Shown here: positions 40 through 47,882 of the stretch, one piece after another
Position numbering within the stretch: position 1 is the first letter of the stretch
Layout of the letters: the number at the start of each line of letters is the position of its first letter
The notes under the pieces: model-generated
What the model saw: the letters and a program-made list of their open reading frames with translations, nothing else
The model's database searches: none
Told to the model about the DNA's origin: nothing
Position numbers and translations under genes: made by a program
Assembly (NCBI GenBank): GCA_026391515.1
Contig: JAPLEC010000447.1
Coordinates: forward strand, 1-48,120
From: Bacteroidia bacterium
Lineage (GTDB): Bacteria; Bacteroidota; Bacteroidia; Bacteroidales; VadinHA17
DNA: 48,120 nt
Reading direction: 5' to 3'

Positions 40-1590
40 TTAGATTACAGGCTGGTGTAGGTTTTCCACCTGATCTTCCTTTATTATCCTCAGCAGTTCC
101 TCCACCGCATTTTCTTCCGGCACATTCTTCTTCACAGGCACCATTCCCCTGTAAATATGCACCTTGCCTTCACCTGCTCCGATATAACCGTAGTCTGCAC
201 CTGCCATCTCCCCGGGACCGTTTACAATACATCCCATAATGGCAATTTTTAATCCGGTAAGATGTCCGGTTGCAGCTTTAACTTTTTTTACGGCATCCTG
301 CAGATTGAATTTAGTACGTCCGCAGGTAGGGCAGGAGATGTAACGGTTGCGTGTTATCCTTGCTTCAGTTGCCTGCAAAATAGAAAATGAAAGTTCTTTC
401 AGTTTTTCTCCCTGGACCTTTCCACTGTTGGTAATACAAATTCCATCTGCCTGCTTTAAAATGAAATAACGCCCGAGCAAGGCAGCAGCATCAATGGTAA
501 GCTTTTCAGGATCATCTTCCTCAAAAACAGGATTAAGAAAAGTTTTTTTCTGAGATTTTTCTGATAGAAATGGCGGGGTTTTGTAGCTGAAAATGAGCAT
601 TTCACCCTTGAATGGCTTATCGTTTTCTGTCAGGTATTTGCCATTTTTATAAATTATGACTTCAGGTTTATACGATAAATCTCTGGTATTGAATTTTTGA
701 GAATCCACAGCTCTTATTATGCGATCTTTTGATCCACCAAGGAAACGAACTATCTCTTTTGCAACAGGAATCTCACGTTCAGGATCTTCTGTCAGAGAAA
801 CTCTTACACTGTCTCCGATCCCTTCCGAAAGAAGTGCTCCGATTCCAGCCGCTGATCTTACCCTTCCATCTTCACCTTCTCCTGCTTCGGTTACACCCAG
901 ATGTATCGGATAGGCAACTCCCTCTTCCAGCATCTTCTTAACCAGCAATCTGTTAGATTCAAGAACTATAACAGTATCAGAAGATTTCATCGACAAAACC
1001 AGGTCATTGAAATTTTCAGACCGGAATATTTGTACAAATTCCATTGCCGATTGAACCATACCTTCAGGAGTATTTCCATAGCGTGTCATAATCCGGTCAG
1101 ACAATGAGCCGTGATTAATACCAATCCTGATAACTGTTTTATTCTCCCTGCAAATATTTATAAGCGGTAAAAGCCGTTCATGGATCCTTGCCAGTTCTTC
1201 ATTATATTCTTTATCGGAAAGCTCTGTTTTAATGAATGAAGCCCTTTTATCAGCATAATTTCCGGGATTGATCCTTACTTTTTCGACGATGCGTGCTGCA
1301 ATCTCTGCAGCAGCAGGATTGAAATGAATGTCAGCAATTAACGGAGTGTCGAAACCAGAGTGTTGCAGCTCTTTTTTGATTTTTGCCAGGTTCTCTACTT
1401 CCCTGACTCCCTGTGCTGTCAGTCGTACAAAATCCGCACCGGCTTCGATAATTCTGATACATTGAGCAACGGATGCACGCGTGTCAAGCGTGTCAGTATT
1501 TGTCATCGATTGAATACGAATGGGATAAGCACCTCCCAGTGCGACCGGCCCAATTAATATAGGTGTGGAAATATATTTTTTTAGATTCAT
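40..1590 (-). CDS. ispG: 4-hydroxy-3-methylbut-2-enyl diphosphate synthase (IspG/GcpE), long form with internal insert domain
   Basis: 516-aa ORF. N-terminal TIM-barrel signatures (RIQSMTNTDT, RLTAQG, ADIHFNP, RINPGN). C-terminal Fe-S ligands (SCPTCGRT ... GCIVNGPGE). Roughly 150 extra residues lie between the two domains, as in the Bacteroidota/Chlamydia/plant-type enzyme. Confidence 0.93.
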   Translation of the reverse strand: MNLKKYISTPILIGPVALGGAYPIRIQSMTNTDTLDTRASVAQCIRIIEAGADFVRLTAQGVREVENLAKIKKELQHSGFDTPLIADIHFNPAAAEIAARIVEKVRINPGNYADKRASFIKTELSDKEYNEELARIHERLLPLINICRENKTVIRIGINHGSLSDRIMTRYGNTPEGMVQSAMEFVQIFRSENFNDLVLSMKSSDTVIVLESNRLLVKKMLEEGVAYPIHLGVTEAGEGEDGRVRSAAGIGALLSEGIGDSVRVSLTEDPEREIPVAKEIVRFLGGSKDRIIRAVDSQKFNTRDLSYKPEVIIYKNGKYLTENDKPFKGEMLIFSYKTPPFLSEKSQKKTFLNPVFEEDDPEKLTIDAAALLGRYFILKQADGICITNSGKVQGEKLKELSFSILQATEARITRNRYISCPTCGRTKFNLQDAVKKVKAATGHLTGLKIAIMGCIVNGPGEMAGADYGYIGAGEGKVHIYRGMVPVKKNVPEENAVEELLRIIKEDQVENLHQPVI

Positions 1591-1673: not shown

Positions 1674-3143
1674 TCACTCCCGCTCCCATTCCGCCCCATC
1701 CTTCAGATCTTTCAGAATTATTCCTGCATTTTTAAGCTCCTCCCTGATTTTGTCTGAAGCTGCCCATTCCTTCTTGTTTTTTGCGTCCTGACGCAGATCA
1801 ATAATAATCTTCATCAGATCATCTGTGAGCTTCTCATCACATCTTCCTGCAGTCTCATCTTTCAATCCAAGGATATCGAACACAAACACATTAAAAAGAC
1901 TCTTTAAAGATTCAAGATCATTACTGCTCAGCTTTTCGGTTCCATCGCTTACCGAATTGATATATTTCACTCCTTCAAACAGATACGACAACAATACAGA
2001 GCTGCTAAGGTCGTCATCCATTGCTTCATAGCAATTTTTTCTCAGCGATGATATATCAATTGAAGAAGCCAGGGACGGTTTAAGTTTATCAAGAGTCTCT
2101 GTAGCCTTCATCAGTTTCTGAAATCCTTTTTCCGCAGCCTGAAGAGCTTCATTTGAAAAATCTATTGTGCTCCGATAATGAGCCTGCAGAAGGAAAAATC
2201 TGATAGTCATCGGACTGTATGCCTGTTTCAGTAAAGGATGATCACCGCTGAAAAATTGTTCAAGAGTGATAAAATTCCCCAGCGAACGGGCCATCTTCTG
2301 GCCATTAATTGTGATCATATTATTATGCATCCAGTACCTGACAGACTCTTTGCCTTTGGCAGCTGTCGATTGTGCTATCTCACATTCATGGTGAGGGAAC
2401 AGAAGATCCATTCCGCCTCCGTGGATATCAAAAACTTCTCCGAGATATTTTGTGCTCATTGCAGAACACTCAAGATGCCATCCCGGAGATCCTTCGCTCC
2501 ATGGCGATGACCAGCGCATCAGGTGTTCAGGTGTAGCCTTTTTCCAGAGAGCAAAATCGAAAGGATTCCGTTTTTCTTCCTGCCCTTCAAGCGTTCGTGT
2601 ATTAGCCTGAAGCTCTTCAAGAACTCTTCCTGACAGCTTCCCGTATTTAAATTTTTTACTGTACTTCAACACATCAAAATAGACTGATCCATTAACTTCA
2701 TAAGCATATCCTTTTTCCAGGATCTCACGAATAAGTTCCTGTTGTTCAATGATATGTCCTGACGCTCTTGGCTCAATTGAAGGGTGAAGCGTATTTAGCT
2801 CTTCCATGTTTTTCTGGAAGCTGTTAATGTATTTCTGTACCACTTCCATAGGTTCAAGATGCTCAAGCCGCGCTTTCTTTTCAATCTTATCCTCCCCCTC
2901 ATCAGCATCGTTTTCAAGATGACCGACATCTGTTATATTACGTACATACCGCACTTTATATTCAAGATGGGTAAGATACCTGTAAAGCATGTCGAAAGTC
3001 ACGGCAGGACGTGCATGTCCGAGATGCGGATCGCTGTAAACCGTAGGGCCGCAAACATAGAGTCCCACAAATGGCGGATGAAGCGGTTTGAAAGGTTCCT
3101 TCTTGCGGGTGAGACTATTATAAATAGTGAAGTTGTTATCCAT
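1674..3143 (-). CDS. cysS: cysteine--tRNA ligase
   Basis: 489-aa ORF. Class I HIGH motif (PHLGHARP), KMSKS-type motif (KMARSLGN), typical N-terminus ([12 protein letters not shown] ... YVCGPTVY) and WHLECSAM zinc/cysteine-site region. Confidence 0.95.
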
Positions 3144-3188
3144 GAGAAAAATTATTATGTAACAAAATTAACTTAAATAATGATTTTT

Positions 3189-3297
3189 TTAACCACAAAG
3201 AGCACAAAGGATATCACAAAGGGCACTAAGGCATCTCAATCAGAAGATGTTTTTCCTTTGTGTTCCTTCGTGTGTACTTTGAGTCCTTTGTGGTTAA
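3189..3297. repeat. Imperfect inverted repeat built from CACAAAGG words (full two-arm copy)
   Basis: Left arm is ttaaccacaaagagcacaaaggatatcacaaagggcactaagg. Right arm is cctttgtgttccttcgtgtgtactttgagtcctttgtggttaa. The termini ttaaccacaaag / ctttgtggttaa are exact reverse complements. The right arm is homologous to 21396-21450 and 14754-14785. Confidence 0.8.
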
Positions 3298-3310
3298 ATG
3301 GATTTCATTT

Positions 3311-3341: not shown

Positions 3342-3385
3342 CATTCACAAATCAAATATTCCTACCATTTAAGGGTGTTTGGTTT

Positions 3386-3494
3386 TTATTAAGAAGGGCG
3401 GAGAGATTAGGCTCTGCGAAACCCTGGCAACCAATCCGCCAACTGGCGGAGAACGGTGCCAAAACCTAATCCCGGGAAAGCCGGGAGATAATAA
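3386..3494 (+). promoter_or_regulatory. SAM-I (S-box) riboswitch aptamer
   Basis: P1 is ttatta (3386-3391) paired with taataa (3489-3494). Conserved core strings are in the right order: AGAAGGGCGGAGAGA, GGCTCTGCGAAACCCTGGCAACC, a P3 hairpin (tccgcc aact ggcgga), CGGTGCCAAAACC, and a P4 hairpin (cccgg gaaag ccggg) followed by AGATAATAA. This matches the remembered yitJ-type consensus nearly position for position. It lies upstream of methionine genes. Confidence 0.9.
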
Positions 3495-3590
3495 AAATAA
3501 AACACGGAAACCATGAAGTCATTTCATCTGTCCCGAAAAAATCTGACCATGCCGCTCATGCCTATGGACATGTGTTGCCAGAGTTACTGA

Positions 3591-6018: not shown

Positions 6019-7221
6019 ATGACAAGAGAAAAATTACGAATAGGGATGTTCGGCTACGGATGCGTAGGTCAGGGATTGCACGATGTGCTGAACAGCAGCA
6101 AAGGCTTCAAAGCCGATATTGTCAGGATCTGTGTAAAGAACCGTGAGAAAAAGAGAAGGATACCAATGTCGAATTTCACTTTTGAAAAAGATGATATACT
6201 GAACGATCCTTCAATCAATCTCGTTGTCGAGCTTATTGATGATGCTGATGCGGCATTCGATATTGTTACGACTGCAATGAAAAAAGGTAAAAATGTGGTT
6301 ACTGCCAATAAAGTGATGGTGGCAAATCACTTTAAAGAGCTTGTTGATATGCAGGGAAAATATAATGTTTCACTGTTATATGAAGCTTCAGCGGGTGCTA
6401 GTATTCCTATCATAAGAAACCTTGAGGAATATTATGATAATGAGTTGCTTTACTCATTAAGGGGAATACTGAATGGTACGACAAATTATGTTCTGACGCT
6501 GATGCATAACCAGGGAACTGATTATGCCGCTGCTTTAAATGAAGCCAGGGAAAAAGGTTTTGCTGAATCAGATCCGGCACTCGATGTGGAAGGCTGGGAT
6601 GCAAAATTCAAGTTATGCATTATTACCGGCCATGCCTATGGCCTTTTTCTTGAACCAAAAGAAGTGTTTCATTACGGCATAAACACCATTTCAAAGTTTG
6701 ATATTCAGTACGCAAAAGAGAAAGGATTTAAGATAAAGCTTGTTCCATATGTAGGAAAGACAAACGAGAATACTATTACAAGCTTTGTGCTTCCACGATT
6801 CATTTCTTCTGACAAATATTTGTATAATGTTGATAATGAATATAATGGAATAATTACTGAAGCAGCATTTGCCGATAAGCAGTTCTTCTCGGGAAAAGGT
6901 GCAGGAGGTCATGCAACAGGAAGCGCCGTGCTCTCCGACATCTCTGCCAATTCCTATGGTTATAAATATGAATATAAAAAATACCAGCAGGGAACAGTCT
7001 CAAATTATACACGCGATTACAAGCTTGAAATTTACCTTCGATATAAAAATGAAAAAGACAGGAATTTATTTGGATTTGAGGAAGTGTCGGAATATTTTAG
7101 CGGCAGATTGTATAAATATGCAATAGGAATAGTAAATCTTCAGAGATTGTATGCCTTGAGAAAACAACTTCCGGGCATGGATGTTTTTATTGTGAATACA
7201 GGGAGGAAGGGGATAAACTAA
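6019..7221 (+). CDS. hom: homoserine dehydrogenase
   Basis: 400-aa ORF. N-terminal NAD(P) fold GYGCVGQG, catalytic-domain motifs YEASAGASIPII, LNGTTNY, GFAESDPALDVEGWDA. Confidence 0.85.
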   Translation: MTREKLRIGMFGYGCVGQGLHDVLNSSKGFKADIVRICVKNREKKRRIPMSNFTFEKDDILNDPSINLVVELIDDADAAFDIVTTAMKKGKNVVTANKVMVANHFKELVDMQGKYNVSLLYEASAGASIPIIRNLEEYYDNELLYSLRGILNGTTNYVLTLMHNQGTDYAAALNEAREKGFAESDPALDVEGWDAKFKLCIITGHAYGLFLEPKEVFHYGINTISKFDIQYAKEKGFKIKLVPYVGKTNENTITSFVLPRFISSDKYLYNVDNEYNGIITEAAFADKQFFSGKGAGGHATGSAVLSDISANSYGYKYEYKKYQQGTVSNYTRDYKLEIYLRYKNEKDRNLFGFEEVSEYFSGRLYKYAIGIVNLQRLYALRKQLPGMDVFIVNTGRKGIN

Positions 7222-7224
7222 ACC

Positions 7225-7296
7225 GCCCCCCTGCCCCCCTAAAGGGGGGTTAATTCTGTGAACTGTTTTAGCCCCCCTTCAAGGGTGGTGGGGGGC
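7225..7296. repeat. Pair of poly-C/poly-G hairpins between hom and metH
   Basis: cccccc taaa gggggg (7235-7250) and gcccccc ttcaagggtggt ggggggc (7271-7296), seen directly. Strongly GC-rich against an AT-rich background. Confidence 0.75.
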
Positions 7297-10300: not shown

Positions 10301-11084
10301 CAACGAAATAATAAACGGGAATCTGATTAAATCAAAAGCGGTTTTTGGAATTTATCCTGCAGTATCTGATGGTGATGATGTAATTGTGGTTACAGAAAAA
10401 CAAAAAAACATCCCCCTTGCCCTCCCGCTTCTCCGCCGGTTGGAGGATACGCGGGACAAGCTCTTCAAAGGGGGAATTAAGAAGAAGAAAACCATCTTCA
10501 GATTTCTCAGGAACCAGGAAAAGAAAGAAAAAGGTGTGCCAAACCTCTCACTTTCTGATTTCATTGCTCCGGAATCGTCCGGACTAACTGATAATATGGG
10601 ATTCTTTGTGGTCACTGCAGATATTGATAATGAGGCAATTAAGAAATATAAAGATGATGATTATGCAACAATAATGATCAGATTATTAAGTGATCGTCTT
10701 GCTGAGGCAGCTGCCGAATGGCTTCATGAAAAAATCAGAAAAGAATACTGGGGTTTTGCAACGGATGAAAATCTTACAGTTGAAGAAATGTTATCAGGAA
10801 AATACAAGGGAATAAGACCTGCTCCCGGCTACCCGGCCTGTCCTGATCATACTGAAAAAAGGATTCTTTTTAGCCTTCTTGATGCAGAGAACGCAATTAG
10901 TGTTGGACTGACAGAAAATTTTGCAATGACACCACCTGCAACAGTCTGCGGTTATATTTTCTCTCATCCTGCTTCATCTTATTTCAATGTCGGGAAAATT
11001 GGCCCTGACCAGCTGAAAGATTATGCCTCAAGAAAGAAAATGTCAATTGAAGAGGCATCAAGATGGCTGGCTCCAAACTTATAA
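7362..11084 (+). CDS. metH: cobalamin-dependent methionine synthase
   Basis: 1240-aa ORF with all four modules: Hcy-binding (GGCCGTTP), pterin-binding, B12-binding ([12 protein letters not shown] ... [10 protein letters not shown]) and AdoMet activation domain ([17 protein letters not shown] ... RWLAPNL). Confidence 0.97.
10412..10474. repeat. GC-rich imperfect palindrome lying in frame inside metH
   Basis: The sequence is ccccttgccctcccgcttctccgccggttggaggatacgcgggacaagctcttcaaaggggg. Nested arms are ccccctt/aaggggg, tcccgc/gcggga and ctcc/ggag. Flanking coding sequence is A-rich. Both strands lack stops here, giving spurious ORFs 10352-10615 (-) and 10384-10587 (+). Confidence 0.65.
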
Positions 11085-12048: not shown

Positions 12049-12060
12049 ATAAATAAAAAA

Positions 12061-12129
12061 CTTACACAGAGGAAATCCTGAGAACCACAGAGGACCACAG
12101 AGTAAAACCTCTGTGTAACTCTGTGTAAG
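12061..12129. terminator. Nested hairpin built from CACAGAGG words between convergent metF and metK (probable bidirectional terminator)
   Basis: Outer stem is cttacacagag (12061-12071) with ctctgtgtaag (12119-12129). Inner stem is cacagag (12096-12102) with ctctgtg (12109-12115). CACAGAGG words at 12065, 12086 and 12096. No U-tract. Confidence 0.6.
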
Positions 12130-12144
12130 TTCTTTATAAGAGAT

Positions 12145-13488
12145 TCAGATTTTAAACTCTTTCTTGATTTTCTCTACATAATCCAGCTTCTCCCAGGCAA
12201 AAAAGTCAACCTTCTTCAGCCAGGTTTTCTTCCCATTGCCATTGACAACCAATGGCTTGTTGCCTGGAACCTCATAATAAACTTCAACATTTTTAACCTC
12301 ATGATCGCGACCAAAATGTCCATATGACGCTGTCTTCAGGAAAATAGGATTTTTCAGTCCCAGCCGCTTAATGATTGCATAAGGACGCATATCGAACAGA
12401 GAGTTGATTTTGCTGGCTATCTCGCTGTCATGCAATATTTTACCTTTATTATTCTTTACATGAGCTGTTCCAAATGTATTTATATAGAGACCAAAAGGTT
12501 CTGCAACTCCGATTGCGTACGCTACCTGTATCAAAGCTTTATCACAAACACCAGCTGCAACCATGTTTTTTGCAATATGACGGGCGGCATAAGCTGCCGA
12601 CCTGTCGACTTTTGATGAATCTTTTCCTGAGAAAGCACCACCGCCATGAGCGCCATGTCCTCCATAAGTATCGACAATGATTTTACGTCCTGTAAGACCA
12701 GTATCACCATGAGGGCCTCCAATGACAAATTTTCCCGTCGGGTTTACAAGAAGCCTCAAATTGTTTGTAAATAGCTTTTGAATCCTGGGGGAAAGAGATT
12801 TCTTCACTCTTGGGATAAGTATATTCTTTAGGTCGTCATGGATTTTTTTCTGCATAGCTTTTTCAGCTGCCTTCTCAGCAATGTGAGACTTATTTTTTGG
12901 TAAAATAAATTCATCATGCTGTGTACTTATGACGACAGTGTTTATCCTGAGAGGCTTATTATTATCATCATATTCGATGGTTACCTGCGATTTGGAATCA
13001 GGTCTCAGGTATTTCATCACTTTACCTTCGTGACGAATTGCTGCAAGCTGCTGAAGGAATATATGTGCAAGTTCGCTGCTTATAGGCATGTAATTGTCCA
13101 TCTCGCGGCAGGCATAGCCAAACATCATCCCCTGATCACCGGCACCTTGCTCTTCAGGTTTTTCACGTACCACACCCTGGCGGATATCTGAGGATTGTTC
13201 ATGAATGGTAGAAATCACGCCGCACGAATCACAATCAAAACGGTATTCTGCTTTTGTATAACCTATATTACGTATCACCCGGCGAGCAGTTTCCTGAACA
13301 TCAACCCATCCTGAGGTTTGTACTTCACCTCCGCAGACAACCAGTCCGGTTGTAACAAAAGTCTCGCAAGCGACCTTCGATTCCGGATCCCATTTTAAAA
13401 ACTCATCCAGCAATGCATCTGAAATCTGGTCGGCTATCTTGTCAGGGTGACCTTCTGAAACCGATTCTGATGTAAAAAAATATCCCAT
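12145..13488 (-). CDS. metK: S-adenosylmethionine synthetase (Bacteroidota long form)
   Basis: 447-aa ORF. Motifs [53 protein letters not shown]. Carries the internal and C-terminal extensions typical of Bacteroidota MetK. Confidence 0.96.
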
Positions 13489-13605: not shown

Positions 13606-13744
13606 AATTGATGGGAAAATTGGTTGAACAGAAAAAAAGATTTTTAAGCGTTTTAGCATTTTTTCCTGTGGTTGAAATCAGCACAAATCTTTCCACCTGA
13701 TAATTGTGGCACAAAGCAAATAAAAAAAAACTAGAAAAAAAAGA

Positions 13745-25489: not shown

Positions 25490-25837
25490 TCAGGATTTCA
25501 GCAGCTTATCTATTTTTTCAATATAGTCAAGACTATCATCAATAAAAAAAGCAATTTCAGGAACGATGCGAAGCTGTGATCTTACCTTGTGACCAAGATC
25601 AAATCTTATTTTGTGAGCATGATTCTGCACTGTATACAGTATATCACTGTAATTAGCTGAGGGGAAAATGCTTATATATATTTTTGCATAAGAGAGATCG
25701 GGACTGACCCTTACTTTGGTTATTGAAATCATTTTCCCGGGAGCATATTCATTGCCCTTGCGGAGAAATATACCGGCAACTTCTTTCTGAATCAGCTTTG
25801 CTACCTTTTTCTGTCTTGTCGATTCCGTTGATTCCAC
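25490..25837 (-). CDS. rbfA: ribosome-binding factor A
   Basis: 115-aa ORF. RQKKVAKLIQKEVAGIF ... ITKVRVSPDLSYAKIYIS is the RbfA KH-like signature. Confidence 0.9.
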   Translation of the reverse strand: MESTESTRQKKVAKLIQKEVAGIFLRKGNEYAPGKMISITKVRVSPDLSYAKIYISIFPSANYSDILYTVQNHAHKIRFDLGHKVRSQLRIVPEIAFFIDDSLDYIEKIDKLLKS

Positions 25838-25898: not shown

Positions 25899-25981
25899 TC
25901 CCTCCCCCAAGAGGGAGGGACTTAATGAATCTCATTTTTGATATTCAAAAATAACTTCCCCCGCTCTCCTGGGAGCGGGGG
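25899..25981. repeat. Two GC-rich hairpins in the rbfA/trpS divergent region
   Basis: tccctccc ccaaga gggaggga (25899-25920) and cccccgctc tcctgg gagcggggg (25958-25981), seen directly, separated by AT-rich sequence. Confidence 0.75.
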
Positions 25982-26062: not shown

Positions 26063-27052
26063 ATGGAGACAGTAGTCAGCGGCATACGATCAACAGGTAA
26101 CCTGCACCTGGGAAATTATTTTGGTGCATTGAAAAACTTTCTGAAAATGCAGAAGGAGAATAATTGCTTTTTCTTTATTGCTGATTATCATTCCCTTACA
26201 ACACATCCAAAACCTGATGACCTCCATGGAAACATAAAACAGATTCTTGCAGAATATCTCGCCTGCGGGATTGATCCGGAAATTGCTACCGTCTTTGTAC
26301 AAAGTGATGTCCCGGAAGTAACTGAATTATACCTCCTGTTAAACATGAATGCCTATGTGGGAGAGCTTGAAAGGACAACATCTTTCAAAGAACAAATCCG
26401 AAAACAACCGGATAATATAAATGCAGGTCTATTGACTTATCCCGTTCTGATGGCTGCAGATATAATTATACATAAAGCCAATAAAGTGCCAGTCGGAAAG
26501 GATCAGGAACAGCACCTTGAAATGACCAGGCGATTTGCAAGACGTTTTAATACACTTTATGAGGTGGATTATTTTCCTGAACCTGAGGCTTATAATTTTG
26601 GAAAAAAACTACTCAAGATACCCGGACTTGACGGCACAGGAAAAATGGGAAAGAGCGAAGGAAACGGCATTTTTCTGGCCGATAGCCCCCAGGAAATAAG
26701 AAAAAAAGTGATGCGGGCAGTTACTGATGCAGGTCCACAAAAGCCTGGTGAAAAACCTTCTGAACCGGTGCAGAACCTCTTTACAATAATGAATGTTGTT
26801 TCGGATCCCTCTACTGTTAAATATTTCACAGAAAAACATGCTTCATGCGAAATACGCTATGGCGATATGAAAAAGCAGCTTGCAGAAGATATAATTAAGG
26901 TTACTGACCCGATAAGGGAAAAGATTAACCTGATTCTTTCTGATAAAAAATACCTTGCAAAAGTAGTATCCTATGGGGCAGAAAAAGCCATAGCCAGCGC
27001 TTCAAAAACTATTCGTGACGTAAGGGAAATAATCGGGTATAAGTCATTCTGA
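26063..27052 (+). CDS. trpS: tryptophan--tRNA ligase
   Basis: 329-aa class I aaRS. GNLHLGNYFGAL (HIGH region), KMGKSEGN (KMSKS), VGKDQEQHLE. Confidence 0.95.
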   Translation: METVVSGIRSTGNLHLGNYFGALKNFLKMQKENNCFFFIADYHSLTTHPKPDDLHGNIKQILAEYLACGIDPEIATVFVQSDVPEVTELYLLLNMNAYVGELERTTSFKEQIRKQPDNINAGLLTYPVLMAADIIIHKANKVPVGKDQEQHLEMTRRFARRFNTLYEVDYFPEPEAYNFGKKLLKIPGLDGTGKMGKSEGNGIFLADSPQEIRKKVMRAVTDAGPQKPGEKPSEPVQNLFTIMNVVSDPSTVKYFTEKHASCEIRYGDMKKQLAEDIIKVTDPIREKINLILSDKKYLAKVVSYGAEKAIASASKTIRDVREIIGYKSF

Positions 27053-47797: not shown

Positions 47798-47816
47798 ATT
47801 TCTGATTCCCCCTTCG

Positions 47817-47875
47817 CTGGCGCCGATTTGCAATCGGTGCCAAGTAGAAAGGCACGGATTACAAATCCGCGCCAG
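47817..47875. terminator. Twin inverted GC hairpins between convergent mrcA and radA (probable bidirectional terminator / REP-like element)
   Basis: Hairpin 1 (47819-47841) is ggcgccgatt tgc aatcggtgcc. Hairpin 2 (47851-47873) is ggcacggatt aca aatccgcgcc. The two units are inverted copies of each other, and the whole element is bounded by ctggcgc ... gcgccag. Confidence 0.65.
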
Positions 47876-47882
47876 CATTAGT

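Follow-up and report, generated by a model that had tools for sequence, protein, structure and literature searches.

In a 48,120-nucleotide contig from a member of the Bacteroidales (contig JAPLEC010000447.1 of assembly GCA_026391515.1; we refer to this whole stretch of DNA, at its full length, as the window), the gene metH for cobalamin-dependent methionine synthase contains a short, GC-rich palindromic segment that remains open in the metH frame. Here we report that this segment belongs to a family of small dispersed repeats, each built of nested hairpins, that it is missing from most MetH orthologues and patchily distributed among the closest ones, and that it has turned over between near-identical genomes. 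Very probably, it is a copy of a selfish or neutral repeat that is tolerated in a permissive loop of the MetH activation domain, and is best seen as passenger DNA rather than as a functional component of MetH. A preliminary description, made from the letters of the window alone, had likened the segment to the palindromic elements of Rickettsia, a parallel to which we return below.

Results

A nested hairpin within the metH reading frame

The metH open reading frame (ORF) encodes five Pfam domains (S-methyl_trans, Pterin_bind, B12-binding_2, B12-binding and Met_synt_B12). Inside it, the 63 nucleotides at 10412-10474 (CCCCCTTGCCCTCCCGCTTCTCCGCCGGTTGGAGGATACGCGGGACAAGCTCTTCAAAGGGGG) had been described as an imperfect palindrome of three tiers, in frame with metH and distinct in composition from its surroundings. 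All of this is confirmed: the sequence is exact, RNAfold recovers the three tiers as nested stems (CCCCCUU/AAGGGGG, CCCGC/GCGGG and CUCC/GGAG) with a folding energy of -31.7 kcal/mol (z = -2.98, with 2 of 200 shuffles equally stable), the segment is open in the metH frame, and its GC content is 0.60 versus 0.36 in the 150-nucleotide flanks and 0.40 over the remainder of the gene. The limits first assigned to it were too narrow, however, and comparison with family members extends the full element to the 72 nucleotides given in Table 1, with ACAT (10408-10411) and AATT (10475-10478) beside the 63-mer being part of it. No further copy of the 63-mer was found within the window at up to three mismatches.

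A dispersed repeat family

Related palindromes had been expected elsewhere if the segment were a repeat, and they are abundant. A scan of metagenomes for the core of the element (CCCTCCCGCT-N2-4-GCGGGACARGCTC) returned at least 120 loci; here and below, W denotes the window and L numbers denote loci from relatives' genomes or metagenomes. Among the matches listed, 98 of 122 core copies (about 80%) are intergenic, in that no open frame of 120 codons or more encloses them; of the 24 that remain, 13 were inspected, and most of these sit just upstream of a real start codon. At its outer ends the metH copy reads (A)ACAT-CCCCC ... TTCAAAGGGGG-AAT(T), and 23 of 102 non-identical copies among the matches listed share these ends, forming a subfamily that we designate A1.

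The relationship is quantified by a covariance model, R1, that was built from 19 metagenome copies, none from metH. Searched against the window, R1 gives one highly significant match, at 10404-10478 (62.6 bits, E 1.2e-16), where the window copy agrees with the R1 consensus apart from a 20-nucleotide insertion in the core loop. The model also matches the metH copies of relatives as well as non-metH copies in metagenome-assembled genomes (MAGs) of Bacteroidales (L043, L006, L033, L022, L041 and L040), and other species, such as L022 and L138, have identical 26-nucleotide cores between genes. A further R1 match, at 6321-6372 on the minus strand inside hom, was considered as a decayed copy and rejected, being native sequence conserved in all orthologues.

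No Rfam 15 family matches the hairpins at gathering or E-value thresholds (10430-10472 yields noise at 14 bits, and the window's sole Rfam matches are SAM and SAM-II riboswitches at other positions), IMG/VR viral contigs contain no core match and thus no sign of phage carriage, the motif string retrieves only unrelated primer sequences from the literature searched, and the literature searched on REP (repetitive extragenic palindromic) or MITE (miniature inverted-repeat transposable element) families of Bacteroidetes holds no description of this family.

Two observations concern where else these repeats lie. The 26-nucleotide core also occurs in metagenome contigs L097, L105, L133 and L137, which appear GC-rich, judging by their flanks (GC is up to 0.65 over the 120 listed loci), and probably not from Bacteroidales, suggesting a wider host range or horizontal spread of the core. 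Long-type copies are found about 1 kb downstream of metH in L006 (12000-12058), L022 (4074-4100), L043 (6842-6899) and L033 (9493-9550), where they appear to occupy the spacer that separates metF from the convergent metK; the window's own metF-metK spacer (12053-12137) holds a different, AT-rich hairpin.

The insert among MetH orthologues

We compared 120 homologues of the C-terminal domain of MetH and also 80 loci from species-representative genomes, the loci being nearly all from Bacteroidales or "Rikenellaceae" MAGs. Relative to Escherichia coli MetH the preliminary description had counted about 24 extra residues in the window's protein, and had proposed that their restriction to one lineage be checked. 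Alignment gives the same figure, with 18 residues from GDD to LRQQ in E. coli and 42 from GDD to LRNQ in the window, and the extra residues are indeed lineage-specific: in about 45 loci GDDVxV and FRFLRNQE are joined by a loop of constant length, 15 residues, and hairpin inserts appear only in the subclade nearest the window (W, L003, L004, L006, L001/L005, L002, L007, L015, L051, L067, L204 and L205). When the 24 codons of the element are taken out of the window's metH, the remainder, VIVVTEKQK+KKKKTI, is exactly 15 residues long, as in the insert-free orthologues.

Several forms of insert occupy this one site. The long form A1, ATCCCCC..CCCTCCCGCT-N-GCGGGACARGCTCTTCAAAGGGGGA, is present in W, L001 (= L005), L004 and L007, and in a very decayed state in L015; a frame-shifted sister form, A2, with an extra C in the core and TCAAA in place of TTCAAA, is present in L204 and L205; a short form, ATCCCCCCGGCCCCCTTCAAAGGGGGA, is present in L006 and L067 and as two tandem copies in L002; and L051 has a version with a compensated inner stem, CCCGATAGTTATCGGG. 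The independent assemblies L001, L005 and L107 contain an identical insert.

The same loop carries unrelated, non-hairpin inserts in other loci, namely about 56 additional residues rich in Q, S and N in L061 (10304-10564), 11 in L053 and L074, and 16 in L068. These show that the loop tolerates changes in length, and it is a general hotspot for length variation. By alignment with the E. coli activation domain (1MSK), the insert falls at the RDETRTH turn between the strands GDDIEIY and VINVSHH, a turn that we take to be approximately residues 1015-1021 of E. coli MetH, assuming that position 1 of the chain is residue 897. An AlphaFold2 model of the 357 C-terminal residues of the window's protein (mean pLDDT 86.5) has strands at query residues 123-128 and 159-164 and pLDDT below 50 at 132-145 and 147-156, the insert being residues 133-156. 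The model therefore predicts that the insert protrudes, disordered, from a beta-hairpin tip, in agreement with the surface loop that had been put forward as a point to check.

The metH gene of L203 (P0113; 926-4630), on a contig of 215 kb named in long-read style, is called as five ORFs. It was considered as a case of out-of-frame insertion and rejected as uninformative because the whole gene is broken up, probably by frameshift errors in the assembly.

Gains, losses and turnover

When the loop is masked, a bootstrapped neighbour-joining tree of the MetH domain has insert-free loci branching as sisters to insert-bearing ones: (L001,(L008,L012)) with bootstrap values of 100 and 100, and (L002,(L014,L020)) with 100 and 99. 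Insert-bearing and insert-free loci are likewise interleaved in the group (L051,L007,L009,L017), with a value of 99. The insert-free sisters retain exactly 15 loop residues, and the tree requires at least three events of gain or loss. The occurrence of several subtypes at one codon, combined with interleaved presence and absence, implies repeated gains, losses or conversions.

The subtypes at the metH site are also found between genes. In intergenic copies the subtype signatures co-vary, with CCC accompanied by TTCAAAGGG in a ratio of 22:1 and CCCC by TCAAGGGG in a ratio of 6:0, and both of these subtypes are represented at metH; the core variant of L051 has an intergenic relative in L029.

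Turnover is most directly visible between W and L003, which share 98% identity in the Hom protein and about 97-99% in the DNA on either side of the insert. Relative to W, the insert of L003 lacks 26 nucleotides of the 5' arm, the 18-nucleotide nested hairpin and one further nucleotide, a sum of 45 nucleotides that keeps the frame of metH while changing that of the core (PPAVAGQAF in L003 versus ALPL..RDKLF in W). Assignment of L003 to subtype A2 was rejected, as direct alignment shows a W-type copy with deletions. In the hom-metH spacer the difference runs the other way: a short unit that is plain in the window (7226-7249) has, in L003 (5528-5575), a hairpin of about 22 nucleotides in its loop (TCTCCGCCGGTCGGCGGAAA), which matches the nested piece of the window's metH element (10430-10449) at 17 of 20 positions.

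Anatomy of the element

The A1 consensus is a unit of about 54 nucleotides, ACAT-C5-TNN-CCC[TCCCGC-N4-GCGGGA]CAGGCTC-TTCAAA-G5-AAT. Across many organisms the aligned stems are almost invariant and variation is confined to the loop of the core hairpin and a spacer of 2-3 nucleotides. The window copy consists of this canonical unit plus a hairpin of about 18-20 nucleotides that occupies the variable loop, for a net gain of 18 nucleotides or six codons, and L003 lacks this nested hairpin. Five of the six reading frames of the element are free of stops, which, with a length that is a multiple of three, makes read-through in metH possible. The A1 family has no T-run downstream, and the window hairpin is followed by AAUUAAGAAGAAG, so the U-tract of an intrinsic terminator is missing. 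At its ends, ATCCCCC and GGGGGAAT form short inverted arms, and the flanks are A-rich, which masks any target-site duplication.

Table 1. Positions in the window of metH, the parts of its inserted element and the units in the hom-metH spacer
Feature	Position	Strand	Basis
metH, cobalamin-dependent methionine synthase, 1240 aa	7362..11084	+	ORF list and Pfam
Complete inserted element, 72 nt, 24 codons, MetH residues 1016-1039	10407..10478	+	R1 match; removal restores 15-residue loop
Element 5' end: ACAT tag and C5 run forming outer stem arm	10408..10416	+	ACAT-CCCCC kept in 19/23 A1 metagenome copies, all but one outside metH
Core module, 5' half, CCCTCCCGCT, including inner stem arm TCCCGC	10420..10429	+	Half of metagenome scan pattern; invariant in alignment A2
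Nested extra hairpin TCTCCGCCGGTTGGAGGATA in core-hairpin loop	10430..10449	+	20-nt insertion relative to R1
Core module, 3' half, GCGGGACAAGCTC	10451..10463	+	Metagenome scan, family alignment and R1
Element 3' end: TTCAAA, G5 outer stem arm, AATT tail	10464..10478	+	TTCAAAGGGGGAAT(T) kept in A1 copies outside metH
Intergenic short-type unit CCCCCCTGCCCCCCTAAAGGGGGG, hom-metH spacer	7226..7249	+	R1 matches outer part, 7219-7255, E 0.005
Second short-type unit, inverted, hom-metH spacer	7271..7296	-	REPIN/BIME-like doublet with 7226-7249

Short-type units and a probable second host gene

Hairpins at 7225-7296 and 25899-25981 had been considered similar in style to the metH segment. The first resemblance is real: the hom-metH spacer holds two short-type units of the same superfamily, of which 7226-7249 has the architecture of the metH inserts of L006, L067 and L002, and the inverted pair as a whole (7226-7296) folds at -50.2 kcal/mol. 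The second is stylistic only, with no significant match to R1 (E 0.6-1.7). The latter, which lies where the ORFs 25490..25837 (-) and 26063..27052 (+) have their divergent promoter region, comprises a pair of GC-rich hairpins (CCCTCCCCCAAGAGGGAGGG and CCCCCGCTCTCCTGGGAGCGGGGG).

Short units are themselves common. The pattern C5-N3-12-G5 matches 220 times in 1.36 Mb, where a back-of-envelope estimate predicts about three; 93 of 122 clusters of C-runs and G-runs lie outside long open frames; and intergenic short units with ACAT...TTCAAAGGGGGAAT ends are found in L138, L177 and L196.

A probable further host gene is ispG, which is on the minus strand. In L005, L010, L014, L015 and L067 an upstream ATG is followed by a short unit, encoding LSPSQGDHRG or LSPFKGDYRG, and then by the conserved N-terminus with no ATG between them, whereas most ispG orthologues, including that of the window (40..1590, -), begin directly before YISTP. 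The ispG N-terminus is thus probably a second in-frame insertion of the hairpin superfamily. In the window, the spacer between ispG and cysS (1674..3143, -) is an 83-nucleotide stretch rich in C and GC (1591-1673), with a hairpin, TTCCGCTGTCGCGGAA, that resembles the core of the metH element (R1 match weak, 1628-1644, E 0.2). At this cysS-ispG position, relatives carry the short units whose hairpins continue in frame into ispG.

Other features of the methionine locus

The window's methionine locus is flanked by riboswitches of two different classes for S-adenosylmethionine (SAM). A SAM-I riboswitch at 3383-3497 (+; 74 bits) is followed by genes for a Cys_Met_Meta_PP enzyme and an alpha/beta hydrolase and by hom, metH and metF, and metK (12145..13488, -), which is divergently placed, is preceded by a SAM-II long-loop riboswitch at 13643-13702 (-; 48.7 bits). 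A 44-nucleotide inverted repeat composed of CACAAAG-type repeats (TTTAACCACAAAGAGCACAAAGG...) lies at 3188-3298, upstream of the SAM-I riboswitch; similar arrays in L016, L018, L032 and L168 make this another dispersed repeat family. An inverted pair near the end of the window (47816-47876), GCTGGCGCCGATTTGCAATCGGTGCC / GGCACGGATTACAAATCCGCGCCAGC, is 88% complementary, and a near-identical GGCACGGATTACAAATCCGCGCCAGC adjoins a hairpin element in the metagenome locus L122.

Discussion

Origin of the metH insert

The observations fit a simple sequence of events. One copy of the repeat would have landed in, or been copied into, A-rich DNA coding for a beta-hairpin tip of the MetH activation domain. 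We infer that the insert is translated, in which case read-through would add a disordered loop rich in Pro, Leu, Gly and Lys. Selection would purge metH insertions that are disruptive and keep those in the length-tolerant loop, where they may be close to neutral. In the genome of the window the unit may later have gained the additional hairpin of about 18-20 nucleotides in its own loop, while relatives would have come to hold other variants at the same codon, whether short, tandem, alternative-core, decayed or partly deleted. Movement could use a hairpin-recognising transposase acting in trans, or template switching or gene conversion between hairpins.

Several points weigh against the idea of a dispersed selfish repeat. 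Only three hairpin loci are present in the 48-kb window, with no second A1 copy among them, and the sequence of the family is very well conserved over many organisms, which could mean a cellular function. No transposase, target-site duplication or empty/filled pair of alleles was found in the scanned fragments around metH, the search for insertion sequences being confined to these loci, and for this reason mobility is deduced from distribution alone. Finally, the 5' junction (AAC-AT, then CCCCC) and the 3' end (TTCAAAGGGGGA) are common to all metH variants, which also fits one old insertion remodelled in place.

This last point leads to the rival account that we take most seriously, a possibility toward which we do not lean: that there was one ancient insertion, inherited vertically and remodelled by indels, duplication and gene conversion from other copies, with precise deletion in several lineages. 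It contests only the recurrence of insertion and not the identity of the element. Besides the shared junctions, it draws on W and L003, which clearly share one insertion that later diverged by deletions and nested addition, and on the inserts of L007, L015 and L205, which look old and decayed. Yet it requires at least three and probably at least seven deletions, each restoring the exact 15-residue loop; the site holds four subtypes (short, A1, A2 and a GATAG-core type), each with its own intergenic relatives; and the window copy is near-consensus outside its loop, though relatives share only about 70% identity over the MetH domain. A functional role of the hairpin in cis, as a structure in the metH mRNA (for ribosome pausing or transcript stability) or as a site for a nucleoid protein or gyrase of the kind proposed for REP and BIME sequences, is improbable. 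The stable fold (-31.7 kcal/mol, z about -3), the near-invariant stems with variation only in loops, and the recurrence of copies at the same operon positions in relatives (hom-metH spacer, metF-metK spacer, upstream of ispG) would be expected of such an element, but it is missing from most metH orthologues, it has no U-tract after the hairpin and no match to an Rfam family, and in L003 (5' arm deleted), L007, L015 and L205 the ORF is preserved although the hairpin has been destroyed. This decay and partial deletion argue against selection on the hairpin itself at the metH site.

Two other explanations can be largely set aside. Metagenome-type assemblies are prone to error at hairpins and homopolymer runs, as the five ORFs of the L203 metH illustrate, so that the segment might be an artefact or chimera, or it might be left untranslated through splicing or translational bypassing. 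Such an origin is very improbable, as all of the roughly 12 variants are in frame and stop-free (the indels of L003, of 26, 18 and 1 nucleotides, compensate each other), identical inserts are found in three independent assemblies, and 72 nucleotides is far too small for an intein or self-splicing intron. That the segment is a native, lineage-specific loop of MetH, palindromic and GC-rich merely through its codon content, would accord with the variable length of the loop and the other kinds of insert in L061, L053, L074 and L068. It is scarcely credible given that a model made from non-metH copies matches the segment with an E-value of about 1e-16, that identical 26-nucleotide cores are intergenic in other species (L022 and L138), that the nearest insert-free orthologues have the ancestral 15-residue loop, and that flanking sequences exclude the non-metH copies being fragments of metH.

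The reading of the metH insert as a tolerated copy of a dispersed repeat can be carried one step further, to a proposal that we make tentatively and regard as somewhat unlikely: the hairpins may be an undescribed, very small, site-targeting type of mobile DNA in Bacteroidota that grows by insertion of hairpins into the loops of existing hairpins. The presence of at least four subtypes at one MetH codon, of the exact ancestral loop in insert-free sisters, and of a module of about 20 nucleotides in the loops of two host hairpins from near-identical genomes (the metH copy of the window and the hom-metH spacer unit of L003) would point to insertion and excision that are precise and directed by structure. 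The agent would be an enzyme acting on single-stranded DNA hairpins, similar to those of IS200/IS605 or to REP-associated tyrosine transposases (RAYTs) but with an ACAT tag.

The family has some practical consequences as well. For annotation, it yields spurious small ORFs, such as those encoding ...PLSLPLSRDRLFKGG... peptides, and inflates apparent protein divergence, and its homopolymer runs may help to break genes in long-read assemblies. To protein engineers, it points out a site in the MetH activation domain that naturally accepts insertions. With insert-bearing and insert-free loci interleaved, and a nested hairpin that differs between near-identical genomes, the family also provides a system for studying the movement and growth of REP-like sequences.

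Comparison with known systems

The Rickettsia palindromic elements (RPEs) to which the segment was first likened are about 100-150 bp long and often intragenic (Ogata et al. 2000, as summarised in PMC10969869 and PMC3733652). The likeness holds as an analogy of behaviour: both are dispersed palindromic repeats found between genes and in frame inside housekeeping genes, leaving the host ORF intact, both are inserted at surface or loop positions, and in both the copies decay after insertion. It does not extend to family membership. The present host belongs to the Bacteroidota (Bacteroidales) and not to the Alphaproteobacteria, the unit measures 54 (canonical) or 72 nucleotides (window), the metH element is GC-rich in an AT-rich genome, and nearly all copies are intergenic, with in-frame copies only in metH and probably ispG. 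This distinction from the RPE-1 to RPE-10 families is drawn on size and host, and no kinship in sequence would be expected.

Nor are in-frame palindromes as exceptional as the parallel with Rickettsia had implied, although the parallel itself is sound. Di Nocera et al. (PMC3733652) describe REPs with the end tags GTAG and CGTC, report in-frame examples from several phyla and note REPs that are nested within another palindrome. With REPs and REPINs as described there, the present family shares short imperfect palindromes with conserved stems, variable loops and a conserved unpaired tag at the end, as well as high copy number, a mostly extragenic location with occasional in-frame copies, and inverted doublets (window 7226-7296). 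Unlike the GTAG/CGTC REPs, it ends in ACAT and AAT(T), with TGTC adjoining the inner stem on the reverse strand; its inner stem is 6 bp long versus 8-9 bp (PMC3733652), and two to three nested stems make up its composite architecture.

A review of MITEs (PMC10969869) describes in-frame fusions by intragenic ERIC sequences, by QMITE1 of Coxiella and by MITEs of Anabaena, and nothing from Bacteroidota. Like these, the present repeats are small and non-autonomous and can be read through when in ORFs. They differ in a canonical unit below the usual 70-300 bp, in having no long terminal inverted repeats, and in having no known parent insertion sequence.

Outside bacteria, the mitochondrial genomes of yeasts and other fungi, which are AT-rich, contain mobile GC clusters that are palindromic and GC-rich, often nested and sometimes in frame within coding sequence. 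The metH element resembles them by analogy only, their context being organellar and eukaryotic and their sequence unrelated. The hairpins described here are a new family, akin to RPEs and intragenic REPs and not a member of any named family, and they extend a phenomenon familiar chiefly from Rickettsia, that of selfish palindromes within essential genes, to environmental, free-living Bacteroidales.

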